Of a stretch of 64,000 nt of DNA, positions 12,349 through 61,276 are shown piece by piece; position 1 is the stretch's first letter, and each line of letters starts with the position of its first letter. Made by a program: the position numbers and the translations under genes. The stretch comes from a virus. The stretch lies in the IMG/VR virus record IMGVR_UViG_3300045988_162372. The stretch is one strand, 5' to 3'. The notes under the pieces were generated by a model. That model had not been told where the DNA came from. It saw nothing but the letters and a program-made list of their open reading frames with translations, and did no database searches.

Positions 12349-12371
12349 TTTTACGTTATATTTATTTAATT

Positions 12372-12379
12372 ATAAATAT
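12372..12379 (-). promoter_or_regulatory. Late-gene upstream element before the 784-aa fibre gene
   Basis: Sense GATATTTATAATTAAATAAATATAAC, 24 nt upstream of the ATG. Confidence 0.5.
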
Positions 12380-17509: not shown

Positions 17510-17517
17510 TATCTTTG
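17510..17517 (+). promoter_or_regulatory. Bacteroidota-type -7 promoter box TATCTTTG
   Basis: Matches TAnnTTTG, 34 nt upstream of the ATG at 17551. Followed by CTATTTAT at 17523-17530. Confidence 0.55.
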
Positions 17518-17550
17518 CATCACTATTTATTTATAAAATAAAGTATAACA

Positions 17551-21625: not shown

Positions 21626-21652
21626 ATCTAATACATTTTTAATTTTACAATG

Positions 21653-21660
21653 CAAAGATA
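21653..21660 (-). promoter_or_regulatory. Bacteroidota-type -7 box TATCTTTG for the endonuclease gene
   Basis: The reverse complement of caaagata reads AGTATCTTTGCATTG, about 28 nt upstream of ATG 21625. Confidence 0.55.
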
Positions 21661-21726
21661 CTATTTTTATACCAAACATACAAATGAAAACCCATTTATT
21701 TTCGTTAAAAAAATATATAAACAAAA

Positions 21727-23680: not shown

Positions 23681-23718
23681 ATGTAATAATCTTTAATTGT
23701 TACAATTATTATTTAATT

Positions 23719-23726
23719 ATAAATAT
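23719..23726 (-). promoter_or_regulatory. Late-gene upstream element (sense GATATTTATAATTAAATAA) before the MCP gene
   Basis: One of about 22 gene-oriented (A/C)TATTTAT sites. The extended 17-nt version is shared with sites at 12372, 25265 and 35634. Confidence 0.5.
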
Positions 23727-25232: not shown

Positions 25233-25264
25233 TAGAAAATATATTTTCTGTTAATTATTTAATT

Positions 25265-25272
25265 ATAAATAT
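25265..25272 (-). promoter_or_regulatory. Late-gene upstream element before the scaffold gene
   Basis: Sense AATATTTATAATTAAATAATT, 33 nt upstream of the ATG. Confidence 0.5.
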
Positions 25273-25449: not shown

Positions 25450-26172
25450 TTAGAGCATTAATATTTTTTCTATTACATCAAGTTTAGTGTTTTCATATAA
25501 TGTAGACTTGCCTTTTTTTGTCTCATCATTCTCCATATATTGTTGCAATTCTTGGCGATTTGATTTAATATTTGCTCCAGGGGTACTTGGTTCTATCACC
25601 ACATCCCAACAGACTATTTCATAATCTTCACCAACAACAAAAGTTCCAAATTTTTGTTCAACACTTCCAACTCCACGAGATGAAACGCCAATTAGATAAC
25701 CAGATAACAACATATTTGCGACTAAATCTCCACTTGTAGAACAAACCCCATATTTAATATATCCTGGTGATAGATGTAGTTCCATCTCACCTATTAATGT
25801 ATGACCTTGCCATTCTAAGCTTAAAATATTATGAGCTATGTCATGTCCTGAAAGTGCGGAACTAGAAGGATGGTCTAGGCTGCCTAATGCATTATGATTC
25901 AATATTTTATCTTGGTATTTTTCAACTTCTCTTTTCAAAACATCTTCTGGATATATACGTCCATTAGCATTTTTGATGCCATATTTTTGGAATACAGCCG
26001 ATACAACAAAGTGTTCTGGAATTACAAATTTATGATTATTATTTATATCTTCATGTATCTGTTTAATTATATCCGTATCCCTGTTAATATGACCATCATG
26101 CTCAATAAGTAAACCTGTACCAGTTTGCCCTTTCTTTACTTCTGTAAGCTGTTCAAAATTAACATTATTCAT
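25450..26172 (-). CDS. Prohead core serine protease, T4 gp21-like (S77 family)
   Basis: NANGRIYPEDVLKREVEKY, ALGSLDHP, GVSSRGVGSV and DVVIEPSTPGAN parallel T4 gp21 NRNKRLYPKRILEKAVKDY, ALGELNHP, GVSSRGLGSL and DAVWGPSAPDAW. Confidence 0.88.
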   Translation of the reverse strand: MNNVNFEQLTEVKKGQTGTGLLIEHDGHINRDTDIIKQIHEDINNNHKFVIPEHFVVSAVFQKYGIKNANGRIYPEDVLKREVEKYQDKILNHNALGSLDHPSSSALSGHDIAHNILSLEWQGHTLIGEMELHLSPGYIKYGVCSTSGDLVANMLLSGYLIGVSSRGVGSVEQKFGTFVVGEDYEIVCWDVVIEPSTPGANIKSNRQELQQYMENDETKKGKSTLYENTKLDVIEKILML

Positions 26173-26214
26173 ATTTCAATCTACTATTTTACAATAAATA
26201 GCATAAATATCTCA

Positions 26215-27732: not shown

Positions 27733-27769
27733 TGTTTTTACAGTCTAATACTTTATAAATAAATATCTT

Positions 27770-29824
27770 TCAGTCTTTCTTCTTTGTAAATTCGTTTAAT
27801 TGTTTCTGTAATGAATCCAATTCTTCATTGATTAAAAAATTTTTATTAAGAAGAGGTATTCTTTCTACATTGTCTTTTTTTTCTTTTTCAATCCTTTCTT
27901 CGTTAATCTTCTTTTTTAACAACTCTGCGTAATGTTTTTCTCGCTTTTGTAAATCAAGGGAAATTTTCTTCTGCTTCCGTAATGTTTCAGTAAGAAGTTT
28001 TTTCATATATCTACTTCCAAGATTTTCGTTAGCTTGTTCGGGTTGTCCGCCTTCTATACCTCCGTTATCCTCATTAGCGGCATTTTCAATGTCCATTTCT
28101 CCTTCTTGACCGTTATCAATTTCTTCACCACCCATATCTTCTTCGCCAAAATCTACATCACCGCCGCCAATAGCAGCACCAGCAGAGCTACTTCCACCTC
28201 CCATTACACTACCATCGTCTGCGCCTTCTTCGGGAGTATCACTATACTCTGCCCCTGCTTCGCCATATACATTATCAACTGGATCAAATATACCTGTTCT
28301 TTTAATAATTTGGAATGTCTTTTTCAATTCGCCTGCAAGTGCATTTTCAAGACGTAATTCTTCAAGGTTATCTGCGATCTCTTTATCAGACCATTTAAGG
28401 ATTGTTTTCCAAGCTCTTGTTACAGACATTAAAGGAATACCATTACCGCCATCAGTAATAGCATCTTTCGCTGTTGTTATTTTCTTCGCAAGATTTTCAA
28501 TTTCCAGCATTTCTGCCTGAGATGACGGGTTGTTCATTGTAATTGTAAAATTAGTTAACTCATCAGTTAAACCTAATAAAATTAAATGCACAATAGCAAC
28601 CTTATTCAACTCCATAATTAATGCTTGTTGTATTCTATTCACAGTTTTAGAGAAACGTACATCCAACAACGAAAGATTTTTACCATCGCCTTGTGCCTCT
28701 TCAAAATTCAAGAATGATTTTGGTACACGCAATGCTGTAAAGACCTTATTTTGAATAAATTTAATATCATCAATGGCATTCAAATTTTGTGCGGCTGGCA
28801 ATGTTTCAATAGGATTAGGAGCATCATCAGAACGTACAGGAATAAAAAAATCTTCAGTATTTGCCAAAATGTTTTTTCTTAAATCAATTTGACCAGTCAA
28901 AGGATCTATAATAGGGGTACGTTTAAATTCGTTTGCGATTTGCTGCACATAAGCAGGTACGTCTTGCTCGTCAATTGCACCCACATTTATTTTAAATACA
29001 CGCCTTTCAACAGAACGTTCCAAACGATAAACCAACATACTATCTTCCATCATTGACAACAGTCTGAAATGCCTTCTAGCTTTTTGTAAAAAACTGCAAC
29101 CATACGGAAGGAATATTGAATTATAAAGCAGCCTAAAATGTGCAATTTGCCAATCTTGATATGGTATATATTCATTTGTACCTACCCACACAAATTTTGT
29201 TGAATTTTGCATATATGGATTTACATTGCTTAGTTGTGTATATGCACTTGCATAAGGATTTTCCATACCATTTTCATACCTTTCAATCTCATAAACAGGT
29301 AATTCCTTCCATCCAGTTACCCCATTTTTATCATCAATATTGAGTAATAAGAAGTCATTTCCATATTTACACATGCATCTACATATCATAGGAAGCATTA
29401 CATTTATGGAAAGTCGGTTTACAAATAAATCCTGTAATATTGCTTTTACACGTTCAGAACCAGAAGTAATATTGATTACGCATCCACTATCACCAATATA
29501 ATTACATTCTTCCGTAACAATATCTAAAGCAGTACCAATTTCGGGAAATAAATCCATTAAATCGGCCTCACGATAACACAATTTAATTTCATTTAAACTT
29601 GCAAGAGAACGGTTAGTTATATCATATTGCGCACGTTTCCATTGTTTTGCTAAAAGATGCTGCTGCCTTGCTTGTAAAGCAGCCTTATCATATTCATCTT
29701 TATCTTTCGTTTTAACAATAATATCATCAGGATTTGCTCTTTGAACATTGTAATTGTTTACAATAGCACCATTCCCTGAGAACATACTATTGATACGTTG
29801 AAATATAGTAGGTTTTTTTGCCAT
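27770..29824 (-). CDS. Portal protein (gp20-like by size and position), acidic/Gly-rich C-terminal extension
   Basis: 684 aa, immediately downstream of TerL and upstream of the protease/scaffold/MCP. Confidence 0.7.
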   Translation of the reverse strand: MAKKPTIFQRINSMFSGNGAIVNNYNVQRANPDDIIVKTKDKDEYDKAALQARQQHLLAKQWKRAQYDITNRSLASLNEIKLCYREADLMDLFPEIGTALDIVTEECNYIGDSGCVINITSGSERVKAILQDLFVNRLSINVMLPMICRCMCKYGNDFLLLNIDDKNGVTGWKELPVYEIERYENGMENPYASAYTQLSNVNPYMQNSTKFVWVGTNEYIPYQDWQIAHFRLLYNSIFLPYGCSFLQKARRHFRLLSMMEDSMLVYRLERSVERRVFKINVGAIDEQDVPAYVQQIANEFKRTPIIDPLTGQIDLRKNILANTEDFFIPVRSDDAPNPIETLPAAQNLNAIDDIKFIQNKVFTALRVPKSFLNFEEAQGDGKNLSLLDVRFSKTVNRIQQALIMELNKVAIVHLILLGLTDELTNFTITMNNPSSQAEMLEIENLAKKITTAKDAITDGGNGIPLMSVTRAWKTILKWSDKEIADNLEELRLENALAGELKKTFQIIKRTGIFDPVDNVYGEAGAEYSDTPEEGADDGSVMGGGSSSAGAAIGGGDVDFGEEDMGGEEIDNGQEGEMDIENAANEDNGGIEGGQPEQANENLGSRYMKKLLTETLRKQKKISLDLQKREKHYAELLKKKINEERIEKEKKDNVERIPLLNKNFLINEELDSLQKQLNEFTKKKD

Positions 29825-29849
29825 TATCTTAAAATTAGTTTATAATACT

Positions 29850-29857
29850 ATAAATAT
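29850..29857 (-). promoter_or_regulatory. Late-gene upstream element before the portal gene
   Basis: Sense TATATTTATAGTATTATAAAC. Confidence 0.45.
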
Positions 29858-29858
29858 A

Positions 29859-29890
29859 ATGGTTTGAAAGAGATTAATCAATCAAACCAT
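29859..29890 (-). terminator. Hairpin downstream of TerL
   Basis: 9-bp stem ATGGTTTGA / TCAAACCAT with a 14-nt loop. No clean T-run. Confidence 0.4.
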
Positions 29891-29948
29891 ATATCAAACA
29901 TTATTCCTAGTCAACCAAAATAGGTTGTTTTCCAAAAATCAACCATAT

Positions 29949-31847
29949 TTAGTTGTGCGTTTTCTTAAACTTTTTAACGCATCCCAAAAGCATCATTGCA
30001 GCAAATCTTCTCTGCTCATCATTTGCACCTTTACTTGAATAGAAAGGAAGCTGATGTTTAGGTTTTGTTGAAGATATATCAATAGTTTGATTGAGGTTTC
30101 TTACATTATAATTCTGTGTTTTTGCACTTGCAATAAACCAAGATGAAACAATTGTACTGTCTTTGGCTTTGATTTTATCACGTCTAATCATATAAAATTG
30201 CATGACAAATAATCCCATTGCAAGACAAGTAAGCAAGTCGTCATGCTGCCCGTCCATATGGTCTGGTCTTCCGTTTTTATATACCCAGGTCTCCAATTCA
30301 TTGATTGTTCTCATTGAGTGAACTCTGAATGAATTATCCTTAAGCATATTTACAAAATTTGAAATCATTTGCAAACGTAAAGAATTTGTTCTAAAACCAG
30401 GTAACTGCTTTTCATTTTCCTTACCTATATTTTTAGTGTTTGCCAGATTTGTATTTGTATAGTTTTTTAATGATGGATCATCATAATAAAGATTGGGATA
30501 ATTCATTTCCAATAAGGATAATACAATAGAATCACCATAACCACCTATTGCCTCCACAACAGCTAATGCTTCATTATAGATTTTCCCATATCTATCTATT
30601 AATTGTGCAACCTCATTCCCATTTAATTTTCCGTTATATTCTAATACCTGTTCAAAACATGGGATTCCGTTTTTATCTATGGCATCTACATCAATTACTT
30701 GTATTGCAGTAAAATCTTCACCACTTCCAGAACTAGGGTCACAAGAGATTATATATCTATGGTTTGGTACTGGGTCTTTCCATATCCAAGTTTCATGAAC
30801 TGCTAAATCTTTTAAGTTCCAATCATCAGTTATTTCAATCACATTTTGTTGCAGTTGCATTTCAATTGTATCAACTGGTACGACGTTATCACTTGAACCC
30901 AAGAATGATACGTTAATCTCTTGATTTATTTTTATTTCATCATTATTAAAGGATTTGCAAGTATTTTCATACCACGGAGATGTCGGTTTCCATCCGTCTT
31001 GTTCCAATTGTTTCCATCGTTTTTCGTCATAAACAATGTTACCTTTTTTATCTATTACTGTGTCATAACTCCATTCAATTTCTCCATTGGTATTTTTTCT
31101 TGACCATTTCAAATGTCTATTATAACGTGGGTCTTGAAACCATCTAAATTCTACGACATGAAAATTGTTTTCTTTCTTAACTGCTTTTGAATATGTGTTG
31201 TAATATAATGCATCTTTACCGTTTGGTGTAGAAATCATTACAACTTTTGCTCCTTTCACTGTGTTTGTTGCTGCTACTGCTTGTGTATATACAGAAACTC
31301 CATTTTGGATAAACGCTGCCTCATCAAGGATTAACGCACTCACGCTAGGGATACCTCTTGAGGCATTTACGCCACTTGAACGAGCATACACTTTGCAACC
31401 GTTAAATAATTCCAATTTTGCTTTATTTCTTGTTTTAAAAATAGACTTAGTATTCTTAGGGGAATTAGGATCTGGTGAAAAATAATCACTACCCCACATC
31501 CATCTTGGAACTTGTTCCAAAAATGTTGCAACATTCTCCAATAATTGTTGAGATATATCAAGCTTGTTTCCGATACAAAGCACAGTTTCTGGTGAATCAG
31601 GATTTGCAAAAACTAACTGTCCAGTTACCCACGCAGAAGTTACTGTTGTTATTCCACTTTGTCGGGGTTTTATTGTAACAATATTATTGTATTGAGTTAA
31701 TGCTTTAACTAGTTCTATTTGTCGGGGAAACAATCTAAACGGAACTTCTTTTCTTTCGGTCGCATTATACGTTGAAAGATAATTTTCAATGAAATACTGC
31801 CTCGTTTTATCTTTATAACATTTGAGATATTCTAATTTATAATCCAT
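29949..31847 (-). CDS. Terminase large subunit (T4 gp17-like)
   Basis: KPRQSGITTV (Walker A-like, compare gp17 SRQLGKT), SALILDEAAFI (Walker B), and a C-terminal nuclease-type region with IISCDPSSGSGEDFTA and HDDLLTCLA. Confidence 0.85.
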   Translation of the reverse strand: MDYKLEYLKCYKDKTRQYFIENYLSTYNATERKEVPFRLFPRQIELVKALTQYNNIVTIKPRQSGITTVTSAWVTGQLVFANPDSPETVLCIGNKLDISQQLLENVATFLEQVPRWMWGSDYFSPDPNSPKNTKSIFKTRNKAKLELFNGCKVYARSSGVNASRGIPSVSALILDEAAFIQNGVSVYTQAVAATNTVKGAKVVMISTPNGKDALYYNTYSKAVKKENNFHVVEFRWFQDPRYNRHLKWSRKNTNGEIEWSYDTVIDKKGNIVYDEKRWKQLEQDGWKPTSPWYENTCKSFNNDEIKINQEINVSFLGSSDNVVPVDTIEMQLQQNVIEITDDWNLKDLAVHETWIWKDPVPNHRYIISCDPSSGSGEDFTAIQVIDVDAIDKNGIPCFEQVLEYNGKLNGNEVAQLIDRYGKIYNEALAVVEAIGGYGDSIVLSLLEMNYPNLYYDDPSLKNYTNTNLANTKNIGKENEKQLPGFRTNSLRLQMISNFVNMLKDNSFRVHSMRTINELETWVYKNGRPDHMDGQHDDLLTCLAMGLFVMQFYMIRRDKIKAKDSTIVSSWFIASAKTQNYNVRNLNQTIDISSTKPKHQLPFYSSKGANDEQRRFAAMMLLGCVKKFKKTHN

Positions 31848-31872
31848 AAAATAATGATAAAAGCGTTATATA

Positions 31873-31880
31873 ATAAATAT
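31873..31880 (-). promoter_or_regulatory. Late-gene upstream element before TerL, embedded in a short palindrome
   Basis: Sense GCGTTATATTTATTATATAACGC (arms GCGTTATAT / ATATAACGC). Confidence 0.45.
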
Positions 31881-31917
31881 AACGCCAAATTGAAAAATAG
31901 TAAAATTCTGTATAATT

Positions 31918-33042
31918 TTATAATGAATCAACAATCATTTCATCTGCTGTAAAATAATCATTATCATTTATTTGATAAGTTGCATCATTTTTTGATTTCA
32001 TATAATCATTAAATTCATCCTGTTCCTTGTTGTTCATAATTTCATCTACCATATTAGCCAACAATCTTTCACCATTTTTTGTTCCTAGAAATACTTCTTG
32101 TAAGAATTCATTAAATTCATAACAATGTTTTAATGCAAGCTGCATAAAGAAGAAATTAACACCTACGTCATACACATCAGCATTTATCTTTTCAAACATT
32201 GCTGTAATCCTCTTCCACAACGGTATTCCAATTCTTATATCCCAATTCTCAGCCAATTTAAAATCTGATTTTTTGAGGATATATTCAGCCTTTTCTTTTT
32301 CTTCTGGTAAACCATGACTGATAGCAAGCTCTAATAGACCCTTGATTGTTTCACAGAACAAAATAGGGAACATAATTCCTTTTGCTTCTATTGTCACCAT
32401 ATTCTCTTGGGATTGTATATATACATCCACATTTCCACCTTCAGTATTTTCGTTTTGGTTTAAAGTATCCTTTTCTGAATATAGCAGAATATCATTATAC
32501 TTCATTATTTTATTATATAATGATGGTAGGTCTGGATTTATCTTATACAAACTCGAAAGATATATTTCGATGTCTTCAGATATGACAACTGATGCTCCGC
32601 TTATTAAAGCATTAAGCATTCTTCTTTTATATATTTCATCTGTAAGATTTTTCATGTCATCAATACTGTCAAACGAGAAATCAAGAGTTTCTTCTGGCAC
32701 TAATCTTTGTTGTTTTATATCAATTCCATTGACTATATTAGCCTGAATGTCTATTGTGTCCTGTGGGACAGGCATTATTCTGTTTATCACCTCTATACAA
32801 AGATTCTCCAATGCAGGAATACTATTTGCTTCGTTCTTCCTACACGATGTAATCAACATAGGTAATTCGTTTTTTACAGTTTCAATACTTCCAATGCCAT
32901 CTGTTAAGTCAGTATATTCCTTATTGATTAATTTGAATAAGAACTTGCTTTCATCTTCAGGTGGCAATGCAGGGGAATCACCTATTGATGTTTCATTTTT
33001 ATTGATCGCATCAACAATATGTTTTGGTAGTTCTAAACTCAT
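31918..33042 (-). CDS. Hypothetical protein
   Basis: ORF. ATGA-type overlap with the upstream gene. Confidence 0.5.
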   Translation of the reverse strand: MSLELPKHIVDAINKNETSIGDSPALPPEDESKFLFKLINKEYTDLTDGIGSIETVKNELPMLITSCRKNEANSIPALENLCIEVINRIMPVPQDTIDIQANIVNGIDIKQQRLVPEETLDFSFDSIDDMKNLTDEIYKRRMLNALISGASVVISEDIEIYLSSLYKINPDLPSLYNKIMKYNDILLYSEKDTLNQNENTEGGNVDVYIQSQENMVTIEAKGIMFPILFCETIKGLLELAISHGLPEEKEKAEYILKKSDFKLAENWDIRIGIPLWKRITAMFEKINADVYDVGVNFFFMQLALKHCYEFNEFLQEVFLGTKNGERLLANMVDEIMNNKEQDEFNDYMKSKNDATYQINDNDYFTADEMIVDSL

Positions 33043-33353
33043 AATATTTTTTTAAGGTTATATCTTTTTATGACTTCCGCAAAGTTCATCAATTCAGAAT
33101 TTGCTTTTTTATTTTCTATGATATATTTTCTTTTTAGTTCACCAATACTAATCAGTTTACTTTCATTAGTGTCTTTTGCGTCTATTTCAATGGTTGCATC
33201 ATTCAAATTAACACCGCTTTTTAATGCTTGTTGCTTGGAAGTATCAATAGCTTTTTTAACATCCCCGTTAGCGGCTTGTACATCAGCTTTTAGCGTTACA
33301 CCTTCTTTCAAAGCTGATTTATATTGTTCTTCTGTAATCTTAAATTGTTTCAT
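33039..33353 (-). CDS. Small hypothetical protein (N-terminal FKITEEQY motif)
   Basis: The track start is TTG at 33359. The first ATG is at 33353. Confidence 0.5.
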   Translation of the reverse strand: MKQFKITEEQYKSALKEGVTLKADVQAANGDVKKAIDTSKQQALKSGVNLNDATIEIDAKDTNESKLISIGELKRKYIIENKKANSELMNFAEVIKRYNLKKIL

Positions 33354-33395
33354 AATCAAGAAATAATATATAAATAAATAGGTTATTTCATAAGA

Positions 33396-33425
33396 AAAAG
33401 CCTCTTTAAATTATAAAGAGGCTTT
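33396..33425 (-). terminator. Rho-independent terminator
   Basis: 13-bp stem AAAAGCCTCTTTA / TAAAGAGGCTTTT, followed by a T-run on the minus strand. Confidence 0.75.
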
Positions 33426-33444
33426 TATATATTATTAATTTATA

Positions 33445-34080
33445 TCATTTGAATTTAGGTGAAGTAAAAGGTTTTTTCAAATAACCTATACTTGTTATCG
33501 GCTTATCTATCTTTTGTTTTTCGTCATCAGAATGGGAAATTATATCTTGAAAAATCTCATTTATTTTATTTCTCTTTATACTTTCATTCTGATTCACGTC
33601 ATCTTGTGATATATCTTCTTCATTTCCGTTCATTTCGTCTGAGTTCAAATTAGGATTTTCATAATCATCTTCAGTTTCATCGGATTTTATTTTTGAAAGA
33701 ACATCTGTTATGTCTTTATTGCTTAATCCTTTTACCGCTTGTTTGTTAATCATCCCCATAACATATTTACTCAAATCGACATCAGGAGAAGGCAGTTCTT
33801 CATTGTAAGAACGTAAAGATTGACTTAATTTGCCTGCAAGTTGTTGTATATACCTTTTAGGGTCACTTTCTTCATCGGCTTCCACACCTGCGTCAAAATC
33901 AGCTTGATAAGGATTTTGTTCCATTCCTTCATCTCCCATTATTTCTTCCTCACCTGCATTCATATCTCCCATACCTTGATTTGCAACTGGTTCTTGTTGC
34001 GCCATCATATCATCCATTGCAGGTTCTGGTGTATTAACCTTTATCACCTTTCTTTCTTCTACTTCACTTGCTTCACTCAA
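33445..34080 (-). CDS. Acidic protein. Either an independent TTG-initiated ORF or the -1 frame extension of the upstream 507-aa ORF
   Basis: TTG start only, and the first ATG is 21 codons in. An A10 run lies immediately 5' of it on the coding strand. Confidence 0.45.
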   Translation of the reverse strand: MSEASEVEERKVIKVNTPEPAMDDMMAQQEPVANQGMGDMNAGEEEIMGDEGMEQNPYQADFDAGVEADEESDPKRYIQQLAGKLSQSLRSYNEELPSPDVDLSKYVMGMINKQAVKGLSNKDITDVLSKIKSDETEDDYENPNLNSDEMNGNEEDISQDDVNQNESIKRNKINEIFQDIISHSDDEKQKIDKPITSIGYLKKPFTSPKFK

Positions 34081-35600
34081 CTTTTTTTTTTCGCACCAAA
34101 ATGAGCGAGAACAGCATCAGCAATCAAATCAACGATTTTATCTGTATAAGGAGCGTTAGAACCTATCTGTTTTCCATAAGGTTCTTCACCTTGTGCAGAC
34201 TCATCATCCCATTCATGACCGATTTTTGACACTTCCTTGTTGGGTGGTGTTGTCATTGCCTGTTTCTGATATGCAGGATGTTTCCCAAAATCATTTAAGA
34301 CCATTGTAGATTCATTGCAATTTCTTTTCTTAGATTCTCCATATAAATCCTCATCGTCAGCAAACCCCCATTCTTCATCGTCGGGAATTCTGTCAAATTC
34401 ATAGTCAGCAGGGCTGTACGCCGTACTTTCTGGGTCTAATCTTGGGTCATCTATATGTGGAAAACCTGCATCAGGGAATGGAAGTTCTTCATCATCAATC
34501 TCGAAGCTATATTCATCATCTTCGTCTGGCATACCCGCAACATCATTAACATCAATGTTTTCCTCATTTACGGAAGGATTTTCTTCAAAAGGTTGCCCAT
34601 CGCCAATTTCGCCGTTACCAGGAGTCGGGCAATTTTGATTATCTGAATTATGAACCACATCGCACCCTTCTTCTACTTTTTGGCAATCTCCACATTCAGC
34701 ATACGGCGCAGTATCGCCTATTTCAGTTCCATGAGATTTATCCATATAATCAGCACTTCCATTCCAAGCCAATACTTGTTCTTCAGTTACCTTGATACGA
34801 ATAGGTTTCTTTTTGGATTCATTCATTTTTACGGCATTAGCACCACTAGGACGTTTGTCTGCTACTGAATTATCGGGAACATATTTTGCCTTGTCAGTAT
34901 ATACTTCGCCTTTTTCTCCTTTCTCATTTTTATCTGATTGCATATCAGCATCAGTCGCTTTTCCATCCTTATCATAAGGTTTTCCTGCCTTCTCATGATC
35001 TGAGAGTTCTTTCTTGAAATCCTTATCACCACTAGCCACAGCAGTATCAGTATAAGGGCTATTCACTTGTTTATCTGAAGGATTCTTCGCAGGTGCTTCT
35101 GGAAGAGTGTGTTTCATTGTGAAACTTTTTTCAGAATGTTCTTCATTAAGCAGAGCGTCAACATTTCTTGTAATTTGATTGAAACGTTCAATTTCTGCCC
35201 TCATCTCCTTAGTTTCATTAACCTGCCAATCAGATTGCGAAGATTTCATGACATCCTCACATATTGTTTGTTTATTGGAAGTATAAGCCTCATTCAATGA
35301 CATCATCTTCAAATCAAACTGCTTTGATGCCAAAGCGTAAGTGGGATATTCATATTCTTTTTTATTGTTAATACCTCCAATATAATTGTAATCTTCTGCT
35401 AATGGTTCTGTATCTTTAGGGGGTGCAACTTTAATATAAAATTTATTACACTCTCTAATAATGCCGTATGTTTTCCCATCAGCACCTTTCATATGGTATT
35501 CCAATATTGGTTTGTTGCTAACCGTTGAAACTGTATTGCTATTACCGAAATTAATCAGTTTTTGCATCAACTCTAACTCTTTATCTGCAATATTGCTCAT
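34077..35600 (-). CDS. Hypothetical protein with an acidic C-terminal half
   Basis: 507-aa ORF ending ...HFGAKKKS on an A10 run. Confidence 0.6.
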   Translation of the reverse strand: MSNIADKELELMQKLINFGNSNTVSTVSNKPILEYHMKGADGKTYGIIRECNKFYIKVAPPKDTEPLAEDYNYIGGINNKKEYEYPTYALASKQFDLKMMSLNEAYTSNKQTICEDVMKSSQSDWQVNETKEMRAEIERFNQITRNVDALLNEEHSEKSFTMKHTLPEAPAKNPSDKQVNSPYTDTAVASGDKDFKKELSDHEKAGKPYDKDGKATDADMQSDKNEKGEKGEVYTDKAKYVPDNSVADKRPSGANAVKMNESKKKPIRIKVTEEQVLAWNGSADYMDKSHGTEIGDTAPYAECGDCQKVEEGCDVVHNSDNQNCPTPGNGEIGDGQPFEENPSVNEENIDVNDVAGMPDEDDEYSFEIDDEELPFPDAGFPHIDDPRLDPESTAYSPADYEFDRIPDDEEWGFADDEDLYGESKKRNCNESTMVLNDFGKHPAYQKQAMTTPPNKEVSKIGHEWDDESAQGEEPYGKQIGSNAPYTDKIVDLIADAVLAHFGAKKKS

Positions 35601-35633
35601 TATATTCTTTAATAAACTATAGTTATTTTAATT

Positions 35634-35641
35634 ATAAATAG
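35634..35641 (-). promoter_or_regulatory. Late-gene upstream element before the 507-aa ORF
   Basis: Sense CTATTTATAATTAAAATAAC. Confidence 0.45.
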
Positions 35642-35660: not shown

Positions 35661-37922
35661 TCAACTAATGGTCTTGCTTTTATTATATGTATTATTTATA
35701 ATGTCCCATATCTTATCAAGATAACCCATTCTTCTGATTATCTTGTAAATAACATTTCCGCTTCCCATTTCACCAGAACGCTTAAGACTCTCTTTCCGTA
35801 TTCCTTTTATTTTATCCAATAGTTTTTTAACATTCTTACCTATCATATCTATCTTATGGTTATCTGTTTCTTTTTTTAGGTCTTTTTCGTAACTGTCTAT
35901 CAGTGTCATAAACTTAGCTGCCTGTTCTTTGACATAGACTTCATTTATCTTAGCATCATCAATGTTTTTTGGTTCTTTAATCCATTCATTCTTGTCAAGC
36001 GAATAGACACCACCCGCCTCTAATTTATCGTCTTTATCTTGAACATATAATTCAACAGGAAAACCGTATATTGTTAAATCTTCATGGTCTCGTTTCCATA
36101 GTTCCTTTTTACTGTTAAAATAATCTTCTACAAATTCTTTTTTCTTGTATATCTTGCTGAAGTCTATAATGATATGCACATCAATGTCAGAATATTTAGA
36201 CCAATTATAATTTGCAATAGAACCTGTAAGAATTATATCCTCTGGTTTCACCCATCTTACAGAAAGTTCGTCTATAAAATCATCAGCTATGTCAAGAAGT
36301 CTTAATCGTACCCGTGAATTAAGTTTATCATTAACCCATATCTTAGGATTAAGTTCATCTTGTACTTCAAACGATTTCAAACTTATGTCAGAGCTTGACA
36401 CTTCATTTATTCTATTAACTGATTCAAGCACCCCTTGTTGGCGTAGATAATCTTCTCCAACAGTCTGACGCAGTATTTGTAATATAACAACATCATCCAC
36501 CCTATATTCTCCGATTTGATTAAGCAGTTTGTTATGCTCCCCTATATAGTTTGCAAAATCATATATATCACCATTACATTTCTTTAATATATTGCTGAAT
36601 GTTTCTTGATTATACCAATCTAGTTCTTCAATTCTAAAATTCCTACCTTGAATACTAACAGAACTATCACGGGAGGTTACTTCGCCCCCATTCATGAATT
36701 CAAATGTATGATTTTCAAATTCAGATTTATCAACTTCAATAGAAAATACAACGCCTCTTGCAAAATTATCTTTGAAAGATGTGAAAAACCAGTTAACTCC
36801 ATAAGTCTCCCCAGTCCTTTTTCCATGACGAGCATTTATTTCTCCATCAAGCAATATATCTTCCAACGCAAATATATCAGTTCCATGATATAGTCTTATT
36901 TTTTGTGGAAGACTATCATAATTTTCAGGTTTCCATTCATTTATATGTTGCACAGATTCATTTGTCGGATTGGATAATATATTCATTATTTCTTGTTTTG
37001 TATGAAAAATGGGGTTTTCTTCTTTGTCAAACAAATAAACACCTTCAATAGCATTAGGCATTACAATACCCCTATACCCTATTTTTGGAAATTTTGTACC
37101 ATATCTCTTACTATTTTGCGCAATCTCGCCTTTAAATGCATTCCAATAAGGTTTGGAAGACGTATAAGGATCATCTTTTCCTGGATATGTAAATTCCTTA
37201 ACAAAGTCAAAGTCAAGTACAACTTTATTCTTATCTATATGGTCTGAATTAATTTTCAAAACCGCCATAGGTGATTTTTTATCATCATTATACATGCCAG
37301 CGTAAGATTTAGCAATAGCGAAATCAGATGTAAGGAAAACAAATCCGTCATTTTTTGCATTAAAAATTGAATTGTCTTGCATTTTTCTAAGACCTTTGGT
37401 TAAAATGCCATATAAATGCTTCATAACAGTACCATGATATAATGGATTGGCGATTTGGATTGTATGCGGATTTTTTACTGTATCATTAATTGTTACAGCC
37501 TTACCATTTACAATAATTTTATCAAATGCCTTTGATTGTTCACTTTGTAGGAATTGCTTAAATTCAGGTGATGCTGTTACATTATATGATGTATTTTCAA
37601 TATCTAAACTCAAGCCATCATCATCATAATCAACCATACCTATTATGACTTTGGGAAAACTAATGAAATAATCATATATTGCATTAATAACATCTCCACT
37701 ATTATGGAATTCATTTTTTAATGCCCCATCATTATAAAAGAAATGTTCTTTTACAGATGGAAAAGCATCGCATAATTCTTTAATCAAACGCATTAAAGTA
37801 TTACTATATCCGTCTTCCTCATTCAAAATATACACATTTCCTTTGAAGATGACTACCATATCATCAACATCCAAAGCATTGAAGTTACCATTTACATATC
37901 TTAATTCGCAAATATCAGCCAT
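35661..37922 (-). CDS. Multidomain protein: two tandem ART-fold-like (Tpt1/KptA/PARP-type LYHGT) modules plus a Pol-beta-superfamily nucleotidyltransferase domain
   Basis: PLYHGTVMKHLYGILTKGL...GFVFLTSDFAIAKSYA and RLYHGTDIFALEDILLDGE...GVNWFFTSF. NTase motif ILTGSIANYNWSKYSDIDVHIIIDF plus downstream FPVELYVQD. Confidence 0.5.
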   Translation of the reverse strand: MADICELRYVNGNFNALDVDDMVVIFKGNVYILNEEDGYSNTLMRLIKELCDAFPSVKEHFFYNDGALKNEFHNSGDVINAIYDYFISFPKVIIGMVDYDDDGLSLDIENTSYNVTASPEFKQFLQSEQSKAFDKIIVNGKAVTINDTVKNPHTIQIANPLYHGTVMKHLYGILTKGLRKMQDNSIFNAKNDGFVFLTSDFAIAKSYAGMYNDDKKSPMAVLKINSDHIDKNKVVLDFDFVKEFTYPGKDDPYTSSKPYWNAFKGEIAQNSKRYGTKFPKIGYRGIVMPNAIEGVYLFDKEENPIFHTKQEIMNILSNPTNESVQHINEWKPENYDSLPQKIRLYHGTDIFALEDILLDGEINARHGKRTGETYGVNWFFTSFKDNFARGVVFSIEVDKSEFENHTFEFMNGGEVTSRDSSVSIQGRNFRIEELDWYNQETFSNILKKCNGDIYDFANYIGEHNKLLNQIGEYRVDDVVILQILRQTVGEDYLRQQGVLESVNRINEVSSSDISLKSFEVQDELNPKIWVNDKLNSRVRLRLLDIADDFIDELSVRWVKPEDIILTGSIANYNWSKYSDIDVHIIIDFSKIYKKKEFVEDYFNSKKELWKRDHEDLTIYGFPVELYVQDKDDKLEAGGVYSLDKNEWIKEPKNIDDAKINEVYVKEQAAKFMTLIDSYEKDLKKETDNHKIDMIGKNVKKLLDKIKGIRKESLKRSGEMGSGNVIYKIIRRMGYLDKIWDIINNTYNKSKTIS

Positions 37923-37982
37923 ATTTAATCTTTTTAATATAAAATAAATAGCAAAAAATTTGGCTATATCAACAATAAGTCA

Positions 37983-37990
37983 TATCTTTG
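37983..37990 (+). promoter_or_regulatory. Bacteroidota-type -7 box TATCTTTG upstream of clpX
   Basis: CATATCTTTGCAAC, 30 nt before ATG 38020. Confidence 0.55.
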
Positions 37991-38019
37991 CAACATCAAA
38001 GCACTAAAAAATATTATAT

Positions 38020-39141
38020 ATGCAAAAAGAAAATACAGTTACAGAAAATGCAAAGGAAATAAAAGACGTTTTGCCAAAGGTAGGATTAACTCCTAAGCAG
38101 CTTCATGACCAGCTTAATGAATACATCATTGGTCAGGATGAAGCAAAGAAAACTCTATGTGTTGGGATGTATAATCATTGGAAAAGAGTTTTAATGAATA
38201 AAATGGGACTAACCATTGATAACGAAACTTTGAAAGATGTAAATATAGAAAAATCAAATATACTGCTACTTGGTAATACAGGTACAGGAAAAACTTATAT
38301 TATTAAAACTCTTGCGAAAATGTTGGGTTTGCCTTGCTATATTGGTGACGCAACTAGACTTACTAGTGCAGGGTATGTAGGTGATGACATAGAAACTGTT
38401 ATCACTGGGCTTTTACAAGAATGCAATTACAATGTGCAAGCTGCTGAAATGGGAATTATTTGTATTGACGAAGCAGATAAGCTATCACGAAAAGGAGATA
38501 ATCCTTCTCTGACAAGAGATGTTGGTGGTGAAAGTGTGCAACAAGGAATCCTAAAGATTGTAGAAGGTGGCGTTGTAGGTGTACCTCCCTTTGGTGGTAG
38601 AAAACATCCTGAACAACCGTTGCTTTATGTTGATACAACAAATATTCTTTTCATTTTTATGGGAGCTTTTGAAGGATTGGATAAGATTATATCTAAACGT
38701 TGTAATACTTGTCGTATTGGTTTTAATCAGCAACCTACAGTAAAGAATACGGAAGATATAATGAACAATGTAACGCCAGAAGATTTGAAGAAATATGGAT
38801 TTATCCCAGAATTGATAGGTCGTTTCCCAATCATTACATCAACCAAAGATTTAACTAAAAAAGATTTAGTCAGAATTTTGAAAGAACCTAAAAATGCGAT
38901 TATTAAACAATATCAAAAGCTATTAGCCCTTGATGATATTACATTGAATTTTTTAGACAAGGCACTTGAAAAGATTGCTGAATATGCATTGGAAACAAAA
39001 ACTGGTGCAAGAGGGTTGAAAAGAATTATGGAACAAGTATTGAACAATGTTATGTACGATTTTTCTGATTATAAAGGAAAGACTATTACCATAGATACAA
39101 AATATGTTGTCAATACTCTAAAATATAAAAAAGCTGCTTAA
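38020..39141 (+). CDS. clpX: ClpX-like AAA+ unfoldase lacking the N-terminal zinc-binding domain
   Basis: Collinear with E. coli ClpX from about residue 62. Walker A LLLGNTGTGKT, pore loop GYVG, Walker B ICIDEADKL, RKH loop GGRKHP, IGF loop CRIGFN, sensor TGARGLKRI. No C4 zinc-ribbon N-domain. Confidence 0.92.
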   Translation: MQKENTVTENAKEIKDVLPKVGLTPKQLHDQLNEYIIGQDEAKKTLCVGMYNHWKRVLMNKMGLTIDNETLKDVNIEKSNILLLGNTGTGKTYIIKTLAKMLGLPCYIGDATRLTSAGYVGDDIETVITGLLQECNYNVQAAEMGIICIDEADKLSRKGDNPSLTRDVGGESVQQGILKIVEGGVVGVPPFGGRKHPEQPLLYVDTTNILFIFMGAFEGLDKIISKRCNTCRIGFNQQPTVKNTEDIMNNVTPEDLKKYGFIPELIGRFPIITSTKDLTKKDLVRILKEPKNAIIKQYQKLLALDDITLNFLDKALEKIAEYALETKTGARGLKRIMEQVLNNVMYDFSDYKGKTITIDTKYVVNTLKYKKAA

Positions 39142-39239: not shown

Positions 39240-39662
39240 ATGAATAATAAAGACAGAAAAGTTAAACAAGTAATAGTTATCAGGAAAGATTTGAAAATGA
39301 GAACTGGCAAAGCAATAGCACAAGGTTCTCATGCATCATTAGGTGCATTGCTTACTGTGTTTGATAAAATGGAATATCCAGATGATAGGGTTAAATATAC
39401 TCTATCCTTTAATAAGGATTCTGTATTGGATAAATGGCTTAATGGCATATTTACCAAAATATGTGTTTATGTCAATAGTGAAAAAGAATTGGATGAATTA
39501 TATAATAATATAAAAAGTAACTCCCCACAAATACCTTGTGTACTTATTGAAGATGTGGGTTTAACAGAGTTTCATAACGTTAAAACGAAAACTTGTATAG
39601 GTATAGGCCCTTGGTGGAATGATGAAATTGATGAATATACAAAAAATTTACCACTTCTTTAA
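39240..39662 (+). CDS. Peptidyl-tRNA hydrolase, PTH2 (archaeal/eukaryotic-type) family
   Basis: KQVIVIRKDLKMRTGKAIAQGSHASLGA ... KICVYVNSEKEL ... IEDVGLTEF..KTKTCIGIGPW follows the PTH2 pattern. Confidence 0.8.
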   Translation: MNNKDRKVKQVIVIRKDLKMRTGKAIAQGSHASLGALLTVFDKMEYPDDRVKYTLSFNKDSVLDKWLNGIFTKICVYVNSEKELDELYNNIKSNSPQIPCVLIEDVGLTEFHNVKTKTCIGIGPWWNDEIDEYTKNLPLL

Positions 39663-40057: not shown

Positions 40058-40987
40058 ATGGCTAATAATATTATAGGATTTGCTGGTAGGGCAAGAAGCG
40101 GAAAATCAACTTTAGCTCAAGTATTACATAATGAAGAAGGATATCAAATATTGACAATTGCAAATTATTTAAAAAAACTATGTTGTAAATTGTTGGGGGA
40201 TATATCCTTAACTCAATTAAATGAGTTAAAAAACAATGATACTGATATCACTAACCTATTAAAGATTGATGATAATTTCATACACATCATCAATGAAGCA
40301 ACTGGCATAGGTTATGAAGTGATTAAAAATGAATTGATTAATTTACCTTACGGAATTCCAACTGTAAGGGCAATGCTTCAAATTGTAGGAACTGATATTA
40401 TCAGAAAATATTACCCTGATTGGCATATTATCCAATTGGTTAATGAAATAGAAAGTTTACCAGATGATGTAAACATTGTAGTTGATGATGTACGTTTTCC
40501 AAATGAAAGAAAGGAAATAGAAAGATTGGGAGGTATTGTTATTTTTATTATGCGACCTACAATGCTTTCAATGGTTTATAATCATCCTTCTGAAATAAGT
40601 CTTCAATGGTTTAACTTCATGGAAAAAAGGATTATTATTAACTATTCAAATCAATATGAATTTATTAGTAATTTTCTTGAAATGAAAACAAATGATTTCA
40701 GAAGAATGCCTTTAAGACAAGAGAAATATTTAGAAAGTGTAAAGGGTATAAATCATTTGTATGGACTACAATATACAGACATTGAATTACTGAATCATAT
40801 TGTAAGTAATTTAACAGAAAATAATCTAATAAATAAACCTAGTTATTATCCGTATATATCTTTGACATGTAGTAACAGTTTTCAAAAGACAATAATAGCT
40901 ATGGAAGCCAATATCAAACATGGTGGAGAAAATAAAATTGATATTCTAGATCCATTTATAATTGAAAATTTAAAATTATATTTATAA
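40058..40987 (+). CDS. Deoxynucleoside monophosphate kinase-like protein with a C-terminal extension
   Basis: P-loop GFAGRARSGKSTLA and VVDDVRFPNERKEIERLGG (dNMP-kinase D.RF.NE motif). Confidence 0.65.
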   Translation: MANNIIGFAGRARSGKSTLAQVLHNEEGYQILTIANYLKKLCCKLLGDISLTQLNELKNNDTDITNLLKIDDNFIHIINEATGIGYEVIKNELINLPYGIPTVRAMLQIVGTDIIRKYYPDWHIIQLVNEIESLPDDVNIVVDDVRFPNERKEIERLGGIVIFIMRPTMLSMVYNHPSEISLQWFNFMEKRIIINYSNQYEFISNFLEMKTNDFRRMPLRQEKYLESVKGINHLYGLQYTDIELLNHIVSNLTENNLINKPSYYPYISLTCSNSFQKTIIAMEANIKHGGENKIDILDPFIIENLKLYL

Positions 40988-40998
40988 ACAGAACAATT

Positions 40999-41565
40999 AT
41001 GAAAAATTTTCCAGTAAAAGTAGACGGTAAAGAATATTGGATTTCACGTTCAATAGCAGTATGTGTGTTTGTATTTAAAATAAAAGGCAATAAACTGTAT
41101 GCCTTAATTGAACGCAGAGGAAAAGGTGCTGCTGATGAACAAGGAAAGCTATGCACCTGCTCAGGGTATCTAGACTTCAACGAATGTGATAGAGAAGCTA
41201 CCACAAGAGAATTAATGGAAGAGTGTGGGTTTATTGCAAAAGAAGAACGTTTACAATTTATGTATATCAATTCAGACCCCAAAGCGGATAAAAGACAGAA
41301 TGTAACAATACATTATGTTTATTTTGCGAAAGGTAACGAAGACTTTAATGAGAAGAAAGCTATTGGGGGAGAAGTAGATGAGGTTGCCGATGTAAAATGG
41401 ATGGAGATCGGAAATTTTGATAAAGATAAGGTGCTATATGTTAATATTTATGATATAATGGCTGAAGATTGGGCATTTAATCATGACCATATCATGATAG
41501 ACCATTTATCTAAATTCTTTAAACTGAAATATAATGGGCAAGAAAAAGAAAAAGAATCTGATTGA
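40999..41565 (+). CDS. Nudix hydrolase
   Basis: Nudix box GYLDFNECDREATTRELMEECGF (G-x5-E-x7-REUxEExGU). Confidence 0.85.
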   Translation: MKNFPVKVDGKEYWISRSIAVCVFVFKIKGNKLYALIERRGKGAADEQGKLCTCSGYLDFNECDREATTRELMEECGFIAKEERLQFMYINSDPKADKRQNVTIHYVYFAKGNEDFNEKKAIGGEVDEVADVKWMEIGNFDKDKVLYVNIYDIMAEDWAFNHDHIMIDHLSKFFKLKYNGQEKEKESD

Positions 41566-42437: not shown

Positions 42438-42480
42438 TATTGTCTGTATTTGTTTATAATAAATAGTATATTGAAAAAAT

Positions 42481-47170: not shown

Positions 47171-47243
47171 TTTAAATATTTATAGATAAGAAATAATTAT
47201 TATTACCTATAAATATTAAGAAACATTTAATACAAATAAAAAA

Positions 47244-48083: not shown

Positions 48084-48186
48084 TATTTCCAAATTATACC
48101 AATTATTATATAAATAGTAGAACGGAAATTTTCTGCAAAGATACAGAAAAATCCGTTCCAAAACAAGTACAGACTGTTAAAAAATA

Positions 48187-50827: not shown

Positions 50828-50835
50828 TATCTTTG
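50828..50835 (+). promoter_or_regulatory. Bacteroidota-type -7 box TATCTTTG
   Basis: AGTATCTTTGCATTG, 26 nt upstream of ATG 50861. Confidence 0.55.
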
Positions 50836-50860
50836 CATTGTTAAAAACTTATATAGAAAT

Positions 50861-61240: not shown

Positions 61241-61248
61241 TATCTTTG
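61241..61248 (+). promoter_or_regulatory. Bacteroidota-type -7 box TATCTTTG
   Basis: TGTATCTTTGCAAC, 29 nt upstream of ATG 61277. Confidence 0.55.
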
Positions 61249-61276
61249 CAACAGAATTATAAATTGTAAATTGATT

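Follow-up and report, generated by a model that had tools for sequence, protein, structure and literature searches.

A candidate capsid-packaged effector polyprotein that joins two Tpt1-like ADP-ribosyltransferase folds to a Pol-beta nucleotidyltransferase in a T4-like phage

Here, we describe a 753-residue protein encoded by the virus of IMG/VR record IMGVR_UViG_3300045988_162372, of which one stretch of 64,000 nucleotides (64 kb; hereafter the window) was analysed. Behind a short leader, the protein consists of an N lobe with a first module (M1), a linker, a second module (M2) with a helical subdomain, another linker, and a C-terminal nucleotidyltransferase (NTase) of the Pol-beta superfamily, a module map that is drawn from the architectures of its homologs. 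We are highly confident of the domain assignments, namely that M1 and M2 each have an ADP-ribosyltransferase (ART) fold and that the C-terminal module is an NTase. The open reading frame (ORF) and its parts are listed below, with AlphaFold2's local confidence given as pLDDT (predicted local distance difference test).

35661..37922, minus strand: the ART-ART-NTase ORF, 753 residues plus stop, with an ATG start
37905..37922, minus strand: leader MADICE, residues 1-6, ending in I-x-E before an invariant L7; E6 is invariant, and residues 1-5 have pLDDT below 50
37473..37904, minus strand: N lobe, residues 7-150, which always accompanies M1; Y113, S118 and E120 are invariant
36963..37472, minus strand: M1, residues 151-320, a Tpt1/KptA-like ART fold; D237, D239, K280 and Y283 are invariant
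36936..36962, minus strand: linker 1, residues 321-329 (PTNESVQHINE), with predicted protease site(s); E329 is invariant, I-N-E stands right before W330, the first ordered residue of M2, and residues 320-329 have pLDDT below 50
36588..36935, minus strand: M2, residues 330-445, a minimal ART fold that resembles Tpt1 in structure and PARP in the Pfam search
36432..36587, minus strand: helical subdomain, residues 446-497 (helices 110-166 of the M2 model), which travels with M2 and lies inside the hidden Markov model (HMM) envelope of M2 in all architectures
36402..36431, minus strand: linker 2, residues 498-507 (VLESVNRINE), with predicted protease sites; VLE500 and INE507 make two [LIV]-x-E motifs, N506 and E507 are invariant, and this end of the M2 model is disordered
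35664..36401, minus strand: C module (C-domain), residues 508-753, a Pol-beta superfamily NTase with a conserved helical tail, member of PHROG 36119

An initial annotation, made from the DNA letters, had reported two LYHGT segments and a textbook NTase signature in this protein, and both are confirmed. The strings it quoted are found in the 753-residue frame, with PLYHGTVMKHLYGILTKGLRKM at residues 160-181, RLYHGTDIFALEDILLDGE at 343-361, ILTGSIANYNWSKYSDIDVHIIIDF at 564-588 and FPVELYV at 621-627; DGFVFLTSDFAIAKSYA, MAVLKINSD and GVNWFFTSFKDNFARGVVFSIEVD are also present. Both LYHGT motifs (residues 161-165 and 344-348) are invariant across 22 full-length homologs of 45-99% identity, as are G567-S568, D579, D581 and E624 of the NTase. 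Scored against Pfam, the protein passes the cutoff for NTP_transf_2 (28.3 bits against 21) and stays just under those for PARP (26.1 against 26.7, residues 323-382) and for Tpt1/KptA (PF01885; 23.3 against 26, residues 154-188, covering profile positions 96-130 only). The homolog P0023, which is built of the same modules, clears both ART cutoffs (PARP 34.3 and PTS_2-RNA 27.8, just passing for the latter). Plus-strand ORFs inside the gene (53-84 residues, low complexity) are regarded as spurious.

The same annotation had not recognised the architecture as a described one, and we too found no description of an ART-ART-NTase protein in Pfam, PHROGs, NCBIfam, PADLOC or the Aravind-lab surveys. A sequence search of the PDB with the whole protein gave weak matches only (DrrA, E 0.065-0.28; Tpt1, E 0.3-3), and a phage genome database returned relatives of the C-domain alone (in Lak megaphages, cyanophages and Maribacter phages), with zero full-length matches, so that this phage is absent from the database. 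The architecture is not unique to the window, as it recurs in many uncultivated relatives.

The ART folds were examined on AlphaFold2 models of residues 1-329 (from an alignment of 29 homologs) and of residues 330-505 (32 homologs). Both models are confident, with mean pLDDT values of 86.7 and 88.5 and predicted template modelling scores (pTM) of 0.79 and 0.84, respectively. In Foldseek searches of the PDB, the top matches to the first model are all ART folds (pertussis toxin S1 at E 9.5e-4, Tpt1 8tfi at 1.1e-3 with probability 1.0, the Rhs toxins TreTu and TreX, cholera toxin and DarT), and the best match to the M2 model is Tpt1 8tg3 (E 2.3e-3, probability 1.0), followed by DarT and TreTu. 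Separate searches with the two models thus bear out an ART fold, Tpt1-like in the first place, for both LYHGT segments. Among predicted viral structures, the whole N+M1 unit resembles standalone proteins of 368-372 residues, such as R9TEX3 of the T4-like Vibrio phage nt-1 (E 1.9e-12), with weaker matches to phage “putative RNA 2'-phosphotransferases” and to a paralog family of Bacillus phage G.

Tpt1/KptA belongs to the H-H-h clade of ARTs and has in common with M1 and M2 the LYHGT strand, a following helix with a G-L motif, a [VF]-x-L-[ST]-S strand and the minimal ART fold overall. A profile of M1 aligns with Escherichia coli KptA (hhalign E 2.5e-5), and this alignment runs on collinearly, at low confidence only, into the N lobe of KptA; the N lobe of our protein is possibly the counterpart of the winged-helix RNA-binding lobe of Tpt1, though without its R-H-R residues. 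M1 differs from Tpt1 in carrying large insertions. H163 of M1 corresponds to KptA H105 and is His in 29/29 homologs, whereas the position of KptA H129 is F196, a Phe in 29/29. In M2, which has no N lobe, H346 is His in 31 of 32 homologs, the second triad position is Trp378, and the loop before it holds the invariant residues E372, T373 and N377 (these three, W378 and F379 are each found in 32/32; E396 in 27/32 and E432 in 29/32).

The Arg-His-Arg-Arg tetrad by which Tpt1 binds the 2'-phosphate (R21, H22, R69 and R125 of E. coli KptA) is conserved at none of its four positions. Residue 192 of M1, at the position of the catalytic R125, is E in 14 homologs, D in 7, N in 3, K in 3, S in 1 and I in 1, and is never R; opposite R21, H22 and R69 stand variable, non-basic residues, in the part of the alignment where the N lobe is placed with low confidence. 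Nor could a strand-5 Glu of the H-Y-E triad be assigned in M1 or M2 from the alignments of 29 and 32 homologs, the candidates being D237 and D239 in M1 and E372, E396 and E432 in M2. Since the tetrad is absent and the H-Y-E triad is not kept, neither module is a strict Tpt1 or a strict PARP. From sequence and models, both are best described as Tpt1-derived (H-H-h-like) ART folds that keep the His of the NAD site and have gained a new set of conserved polar residues; ADP-ribosyltransferase activity is plausible. Of the Tpt1/PARP-like pattern proposed initially, the ART fold and the LYHGT His stand, and the Tpt1 tetrad and PARP triad fall away; at the positions singled out for checking (H, Y/S and E/D/Q), the His is followed by Phe196 or Trp378 and by no assignable Glu, so that the canonical triad is not retained.

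The two modules had also been taken for tandem copies. Aligned with each other as profiles, M1 and M2 match over only 22 residues around LYHGT (hhalign E 7.6e-5, probability 62%), from which we conclude that they are not recent tandem duplicates; together with the homolog architectures described below, this makes them independent, shufflable cassettes instead.

One alternative is that the ART-fold modules are catalytically dead and serve to bind NAD+, ADP-ribose or nucleic acid, for targeting or for scaffolding, leaving the NTase as the sole enzyme. The Phe (M1) or Trp (M2) at the second triad position, the unassigned third Glu and the missing Tpt1 tetrad all agree with this, as does the fact that the NTase is constant and strictly conserved in the family while the ART modules are dispensable. 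However, the polar conservation of the modules is very strong (H163, T165, N191, D237, D239, K280 and Y283 in M1; H346, E372, T373, N377, E396 and E432 in M2) and typical of active sites. Tpt1 itself and the H-Y-[ILY] PARPs are active without the Glu. In addition, relatives exchange these modules for ART-PolyVal domains that pass curated thresholds, which suggests that ART activity is the selected function. We consider dead ART modules improbable.

The likeness to Tpt1 also raises the alternative of a cytoplasmic enzyme of RNA repair or RNA-end modification, in which the KptA-like modules would clear or modify phosphorylated RNA ends with NAD+ and the NTase would restore or add nucleotides, for instance on tRNAs that host anticodon or acceptor-end nucleases have damaged, alongside the peptidyl-tRNA hydrolase PTH2. 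Tpt1/KptA is the top structural relative of M2 and among the top ones of M1, Pfam and NCBIfam also point to RNA 2'-phosphotransferase, and RNA repair and small molecules are the main associations of the H-H-h clade (PMC9503650). For RNA repair and ribosome rescue, jumbo phages bring together KptA, PTH2 and Pol-beta NTases (RlaP and CCA-adding enzymes; PMC7824862); our protein resembles this set in pairing a Pol-beta NTase with a KptA-like ART, with PTH2 encoded by the same jumbo phage, and one relative has a weak 2H/CPD match between M2 and the C-domain. Against this stand the loss of all four phosphate-binding residues of the tetrad and the distance from curated Tpt1 models, as the NCBIfam equivalogs for RNA 2'-phosphotransferase, which have cutoffs of 231 and 239 bits, give scores of 20 and 18. 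Because the tetrad is absent, we take the modules not to be 2'-phosphotransferases, and a nucleic-acid end, a small molecule or a protein side chain would be the more likely target.

The C-terminal third had been read as a Pol-beta NTase, and this is borne out by the Pfam cutoff it passes and by its three intact catalytic carboxylates. GS567-568, D579 and D581 make up the h-G-[GS]-x(9-13)-D-h-[DE]-h motif, E624 is the third carboxylate on a later strand, and the helical tail has a conserved set of its own (K706, R709, GEMxSGN at 717-723, K727 and RR730-731). The PHROG of the module, phrog_36119 (unknown function), covers residues 512-750 (E 1e-47). An exhaustive search with residues 506-753 found 3,691 clusters (50% identity) at E <=1e-3, and 1,007 at E <=1e-30, in proteins of 263-1,999 residues in which the domain may be N-terminal, central or C-terminal. 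In 40 diverse members, the GS, the DxD and the next His, the third carboxylate, several basic tail residues (R, K) and an N are invariant, and for this reason the NTase is almost certainly active as an enzyme.

What kind of NTase is it? By sequence, the C-domain has no match in the PDB below E 0.06, and hhalign comparisons with E. coli GlnE, Cca, PcnB and GlnD found nothing past the GS..DxD core motif, so the domain remains unplaced within the Pol-beta superfamily. Pfam gives no RlaP or CCA-adding match either, which, with the lack of similarity to Cca and PcnB, sets our protein apart from the RNA-repair set of jumbo phages and counts against a role in RNA repair. It differs from that set as well in that its NTase is fused to ARTs and not linked to RNA ligase, and in its late/structural regulation class (see below). 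The partners that Pfam recognises beside the domain are NUDIX (5/40), ART-PolyVal (4/40), WG repeats (4/40) and inorganic pyrophosphatase (InPase), a set centred on NAD, ADP-ribose and nucleotides. Most of the sequence flanking the domain is unannotated: 118 of 145 representatives that carry the NTase hub (the set P0084-P0228) have a median of about 490 residues without a recognisable domain, a large reservoir of putative effector cassettes.

Architectures were mapped by BLAST and HMM searches over 83 homologs and then over the 145 representatives. Besides N+M1+M2+C, the type seen here, we found N+M1+C, M2+C, N+M1+M2+M2+C, a permuted M2+N+M1+C, and C+M2. In P0081, N+M1 is replaced by a bona fide Pfam ART-PolyVal domain (E 5e-16), and in P0045 by an N-terminus like DUF3990/ART-PolyVal. 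Three of the listed architectures and two more distant ones share one genomic position in contigs that span 82-428 kb, with identities down to 38%. In four of these five loci, the gene lies next to a ClpX-like gene in divergent orientation (the most distant, L009, has other upstream genes), and in 5/5 it heads a block that contains, besides the large terminase and a T4-type portal, a 530-610-residue protein and smaller ORFs. Relatives thus treat the modules as independent cassettes, which are gained, lost, duplicated or permuted at a single syntenic locus. An unannotated neighbour of 755 residues in relative L003 is unrelated to our protein. Two insertions were seen at this locus in relatives: in L006 (16646-17815), an intein with a LAGLIDADG endonuclease interrupts the large terminase, and in L010 (14917-16743), a Peptidase_C10/C39-like protein with a dockerin lies between the ART-NTase gene and the terminase.

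Where the cassettes meet, a short motif recurs. Each module junction of the protein has an [LI]-x-E, the linkers being laid out as PTNE-SVQH-INE329|W and VLE500-SVNR-INE507|V. All homologs that start with N+M1 have leaders of 2-12 residues that end in [LI]-x-E and are followed by L-[RK]-Y; those that start with M2 begin M..[LI]NE|WKP, the motif that precedes the internal M2, and a distant group begins MGKTIRF-x-E|N. A leader with [LIVM]xE is present in 61 of the 83 homologs. Homologs have ITE-6, INE-6 or LNE-6 in the place of our ICE-6 before L7; P0023, P0027 and P0031 begin MALITE|L where our protein begins MADICE|L. The strongest test of the motif is the junction between the C-domain and a C-terminal extension, at which S-[IL]-x-E occurs in 86 of the 88 family proteins that continue for at least 25 residues (background in 8-residue windows, 0.12). 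A further 103 proteins have no extension past the C-domain, and their last residue is the one just before the junction Glu, from which it follows that this Glu belongs to junctions and not to the fold. Over the family, [LI]NE is enriched 2.4-fold (z 16), and 2.9-fold outside the C-domain (z 17), against 0.95-fold for the control [LI]ND.

This motif has a known parallel in the ART Alt of phage T4, which is packaged in the capsid, leaves it together with the DNA, and is processed by the prohead protease gp21 at ITE-6 and also at LTE-619 (PMC5694885). More generally, gp21 trims small N-terminal peptides from Alt and internal proteins, and T4-type proteases cut after the Glu of a short motif (PMC9026906, PMC9958956). 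The N-terminus of Alt, as retrieved, is MELITE|LFDED, and our leader, M-x-x-I-x-E|L, has the same form at the same position; the further [LI]xE sites downstream recall LTE-619, and both proteins are phage ARTs in T4-type head systems. By this analogy, we predict that MADICE is a capsid-targeting propeptide removed by the prohead protease. The initial comparison with Alt has therefore gained support as a likeness of sequence, from the ITE-6-type leader and from a gp21-type protease encoded in the same genome.

This protease and the head genes lie downstream of the ART-NTase gene, and the intergenic region holds two kinds of upstream element:

27770..35600, minus strand: downstream block of four unannotated ORFs (507, 211, 106 and 374 residues), the large terminase (29949-31847) and a T4 gp20-type portal (27770-29824), syntenic with five homolog architectures
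25450..26172, minus strand: gp21-type prohead protease (Peptidase_S77, 70.6 bits against a cutoff of 27; phrog_207), the predicted processing enzyme of the polyprotein
37943..37951, minus strand: CTATTTATT, the copy of [AC]TATTTAT[AT] upstream of the ART-NTase gene, a putative late/structural promoter element
12371-12379, 23718-23726, 25264-25272, 26193-26201, 27758-27766 and 29849-29857, minus strand: copies of [AC]TATTTAT[AT], which lie 14-45 nt upstream of most structural genes
31872-31880, 33373-33381, 35633-35641, 37943-37951, 42458-42466 and 47208-47216, minus strand: further copies of this candidate late/structural promoter element
37983..37992, plus strand: TATCTTTGCA, upstream of the divergent ClpX-like gene, resembling the Bacteroidota -7 consensus and of a different regulatory class

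The motif [AC]TATTTAT[AT] has 38 matches in the window against 18 +/- 4 expected, a number reached in 0 of 100 shuffles. In the head/packaging block, every gene with an intergenic gap before it (which excludes p141, p374 and p211) has one copy 14-38 nt ahead of its start codon; among these genes are those for the major capsid protein, a scaffold-like protein, the protease, the portal and the large terminase (TerL). The motif equals the T4 late -10 box, TATAAATA, in reverse complement, and so reads on the opposite strand compared with T4; TATAAATA itself is enriched, yet on the strand opposite to the genes, and the coding-strand form was retained as the real motif. TATCTTTGCA has six exact copies in the window, at 17510-17519, 37983-37992, 50828-50837 and 61241-61250 (plus) and at 21651-21660 and 48134-48143 (minus), several of them just upstream of non-structural genes (ClpX-like, 17551 and 50861). 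The Bacteroidota -7 promoter consensus is TAnnTTTG. The resemblance suggests that these copies are early promoters for the polymerase of a Bacteroidota host. Hence the placement first proposed for the gene, at the head of the minus-strand late block and facing the early region, is supported by the head-block motif before it and by the host-type element before the divergent ClpX-like gene. A generic scan for sigma-70 promoters and terminators was uninformative (42 promoter-like sites against 44 expected).

In the structural region, a protein at 9994-12348 (minus) matches Fib_succ_major (E 1.4e-15), a domain that is typical of surface proteins in Fibrobacter/Bacteroidota and gives a hint to host or receptor. 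This domain and the TAnnTTTG-like TATCTTTGCA both point to a host of Bacteroidota/Fibrobacter type, and the virus is probably a T4-like jumbo phage of a Bacteroidota bacterium.

Several other genes on the minus strand were also noted. The protease carries QLTE at residues 8-11 of its N-terminus, like the self-cleaved LIE-9 of T4 gp21. The Gp23-family major capsid protein (21788-23680, minus; 630 residues) matches its profile over residues 377-619 alone, which implies an insertion or extension of roughly 250-370 residues, and its C-terminal end, ...YWNINELR*, echoes the INELRY that starts the ART-NTase family. The 106-residue ORF of the head block (33039-33359, minus) starts MIMKQFKITE|EQYK, with ITE at residues 8-10, and resembles the P0083 leader MKRKFIITE|QQYK; it may, on this sequence, encode a small internal head protein with a capsid-targeting propeptide. 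The 507-residue (34077-35600) and 211-residue (33445-34080) proteins, both on the minus strand, are strongly acidic and of low complexity, match no family and keep their position between the ART-NTase gene and the terminase in 5/5 relatives; they may be internal proteins of the head or ejection proteins. An immediate neighbour of the capsid gene is an ORF of 598 residues (19928-21724, minus) that resembles homing/HNH endonucleases (PHROG 3339/559), with weak Mom/GNAT, Vsr and zinc-finger matches.

On the divergent side, a ClpX-like AAA+ gene (38020-39141, plus) is followed, as its second gene, by an archaeo-eukaryotic-type PTH2 (39240-39662, plus), and then by genes for a dNMP kinase and a NUDIX hydrolase, at 40058-40987 and 40999-41565 (plus) in the order listed; the ClpX-like/PTH2/dNMP kinase cluster is syntenic in relatives. 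A second AAA+ gene, ClpB-like, lies at 48187-50727 (minus). That PTH2 occupies this place here and in relatives favours the RNA-repair alternative introduced above. However, PTH2 is divergently transcribed, in a ClpX-like-headed cluster with the different, host-type promoter element, whereas the ART-NTase gene shares its regulation and its synteny with the head and packaging genes. No tRNA genes were found in the 64-kb window, and there was no RNA ligase or PNK match among the ten largest remaining ORFs, many window ORFs being left unscanned. RNA repair would also leave the junction motif unexplained, and on balance we regard it as unlikely.

In light of these observations, what might the protein do? 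We propose, with a probability of about 0.5, that the gene encodes a late-expressed modular effector polyprotein that is packaged into the capsid and processed by the prohead protease; for packaging and processing as such, we put the odds at even or slightly better. The polyprotein would be made together with the head proteins and enter the prohead via its short leader. The protease would then cut after Glu6, Glu329 (perhaps also Glu323) and Glu507 (perhaps also Glu500), releasing three enzymes of about 37, 20 and 29 kDa (N+M1, M2 and the NTase) to be ejected along with the DNA. Once in the host, the ART modules would bind NAD+ via the conserved His and an aromatic residue and move ADP-ribose onto a target, and the NTase would pass a nucleoside monophosphate from a nucleoside triphosphate (NTP) to a hydroxyl on a host macromolecule or on a signal derived from nucleotides. 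Early host take-over or counter-defence would result. Nucleic-acid or small-molecule targets are favoured over the protein targets of Alt, because Tpt1 ancestry and the H-H-h clade link the modules to RNA ends and small molecules. In agreement with this proposal, phage ARTs that adjoin terminase and portal genes have been predicted to be packaged in the head (PMC9503650).

A number of points weigh against a packaged and processed polyprotein. Packaging, cleavage and the ART and NTase activities are all things that we infer. The ART modules, having Phe or Trp in the Tyr/His position and no clearly placed catalytic Glu, could be inactive or ligand binders, and their Foldseek E-values against the PDB are modest (~1e-3), though the match lists are homogeneous. 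A leader of six residues is very short. An [LI]xE occurs within the first 12 residues of 8 of the 49 ORFs in the window, the protease among them, and because [LI]NE is common in the N/E/I/L-rich proteome of this phage, we rejected it as a signal in itself; only its placement at junctions, its conservation and its family-wide enrichment carry weight. The enrichment statistics, in turn, overstate independence, since the sequences are homologous. The Glu-Val that opens the C-domain is conserved superfamily-wide and perhaps partly structural. Finally, standalone homologs of the C-domain in cyanophage S-CRM01 and Maribacter phage Molly sit outside structural regions, among early/metabolic genes; a search for published virion proteomics of homolog-bearing phages (S-CRM01) found nothing usable.

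The placement of these standalone homologs is in keeping with another alternative, a late but unpackaged cytoplasmic counter-defence enzyme. It would neutralise host sensing of the portal, terminase or capsid, or destroy or modify immune signals derived from NAD+ or nucleotides, with the ART folds processing NAD+/ADP-ribose or transferring ADP-ribose and the NTase modifying the signal or its sensor. The company that the NTase hub keeps (NUDIX, inorganic pyrophosphatase and several ART types) is just such a nucleotide/NAD-centred set, a NUDIX gene lies nearby, and the countering of packaging-targeted immunity has been offered as an alternative account of the linkage between ARTs and packaging genes (PMC9503650). 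Left unexplained are the Alt-like ITE/ICE-6 leader, the junction Glu (86/88, and absent at natural C-termini) and the enrichment of [LI]NE. PADLOC, for its part, recognised no anti-defence family, giving one very weak match below a meaningful threshold (PDC-S09, E 0.0061, 14.9 bits, residues 561-591). We therefore think an unpackaged enzyme rather doubtful.

A packaged, processed polyprotein resembles several known systems and also differs from each of them. Beyond the leader, we found no homology to T4 Alt, as BLASTP and hhalign gave nothing below E 0.6. Alt is an ART of the R-S-E clade, whereas M1 and M2 are Tpt1/KptA-like; our protein has two ART folds and an NTase in what appears to be a multi-site polyprotein, and its gene adjoins those for the terminase and portal, unlike T4 alt. 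The polyvalent proteins of phages and conjugative elements carry multiple effector domains per polypeptide; their commonest enzyme class is the ARTs, and Pol-beta NTases occur in them too (Iyer et al. 2017, PMC5512222). Our protein is like them in having at least two distinct catalytic domains (to which relatives add ART-PolyVal, NUDIX and InPase), in being encoded beside packaging genes (TerL, portal, protease and major capsid protein, kept in five loci) and in the fast diversification of its architectures. It differs from them in that its NTase is not the firmicute ArdC-linked family of that survey and in that its conserved [LI]xE linkers point to processing by the prohead protease and not by embedded peptidases; no MuF, portal or other known anchoring domain was detected in it. 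Giant phages of the phiKZ/SPN3US type have many internal head enzymes that a gp21-related protease cuts after Glu in short motifs, often at several redundant sites per propeptide. These use [SAG]-x-E and long propeptides, whereas our protein has a T4-like [LI]-x-E and a short leader, and here cutting would free enzymatic modules from each other instead of taking off propeptides. The enzymes of the NARP3 pathway, which rebuilds NAD+, are unrelated.

More tentatively, and at less than even odds, the protein may belong to a large class, as yet undescribed, of plug-and-play effector polyproteins made by T4-like jumbo phages, with cassettes mounted on standard [LI]-x-E linkers and cut apart in the capsid by the prohead protease. 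Such a class would be built around a constant Pol-beta NTase hub, with diverse ARTs, NUDIX, pyrophosphatase and many unknown modules attached. Given a standard linker, any recombined cassette would automatically be packaged, freed as a separate enzyme and injected, and the arsenal could be shuffled at a single locus. The component superfamilies are already known, as is the idea of a packaged phage ART or polyvalent effector. What is new is the architecture of a Tpt1-like ART, a second ART and an NTase, the exchange of cassettes at one syntenic locus, the very large and unnamed NTase hub family, and the standardised [LI]-x-E junctions with an Alt-type leader.

The proposal makes testable predictions, namely that virions hold processed forms whose new N-termini are L7, W330 and V508, and that there are activities that depend on NAD+ and on NTP. 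It also flags two unstudied enzyme groups, the Tpt1-derived ART folds without the tetrad and an unnamed family of Pol-beta NTases, thousands of clusters in size, that lacks a structure and an assigned substrate. The leader and linker may prove useful for the packaging of foreign proteins, as the capsid-targeting sequence (CTS) of T4 has been. If true, our reading would extend the T4 Alt paradigm to multi-enzyme polyproteins in uncultivated jumbo phages, probably of Bacteroidota, and protease-cleavable standard linkers would be a simple mechanism for the fast turnover of injected effectors.

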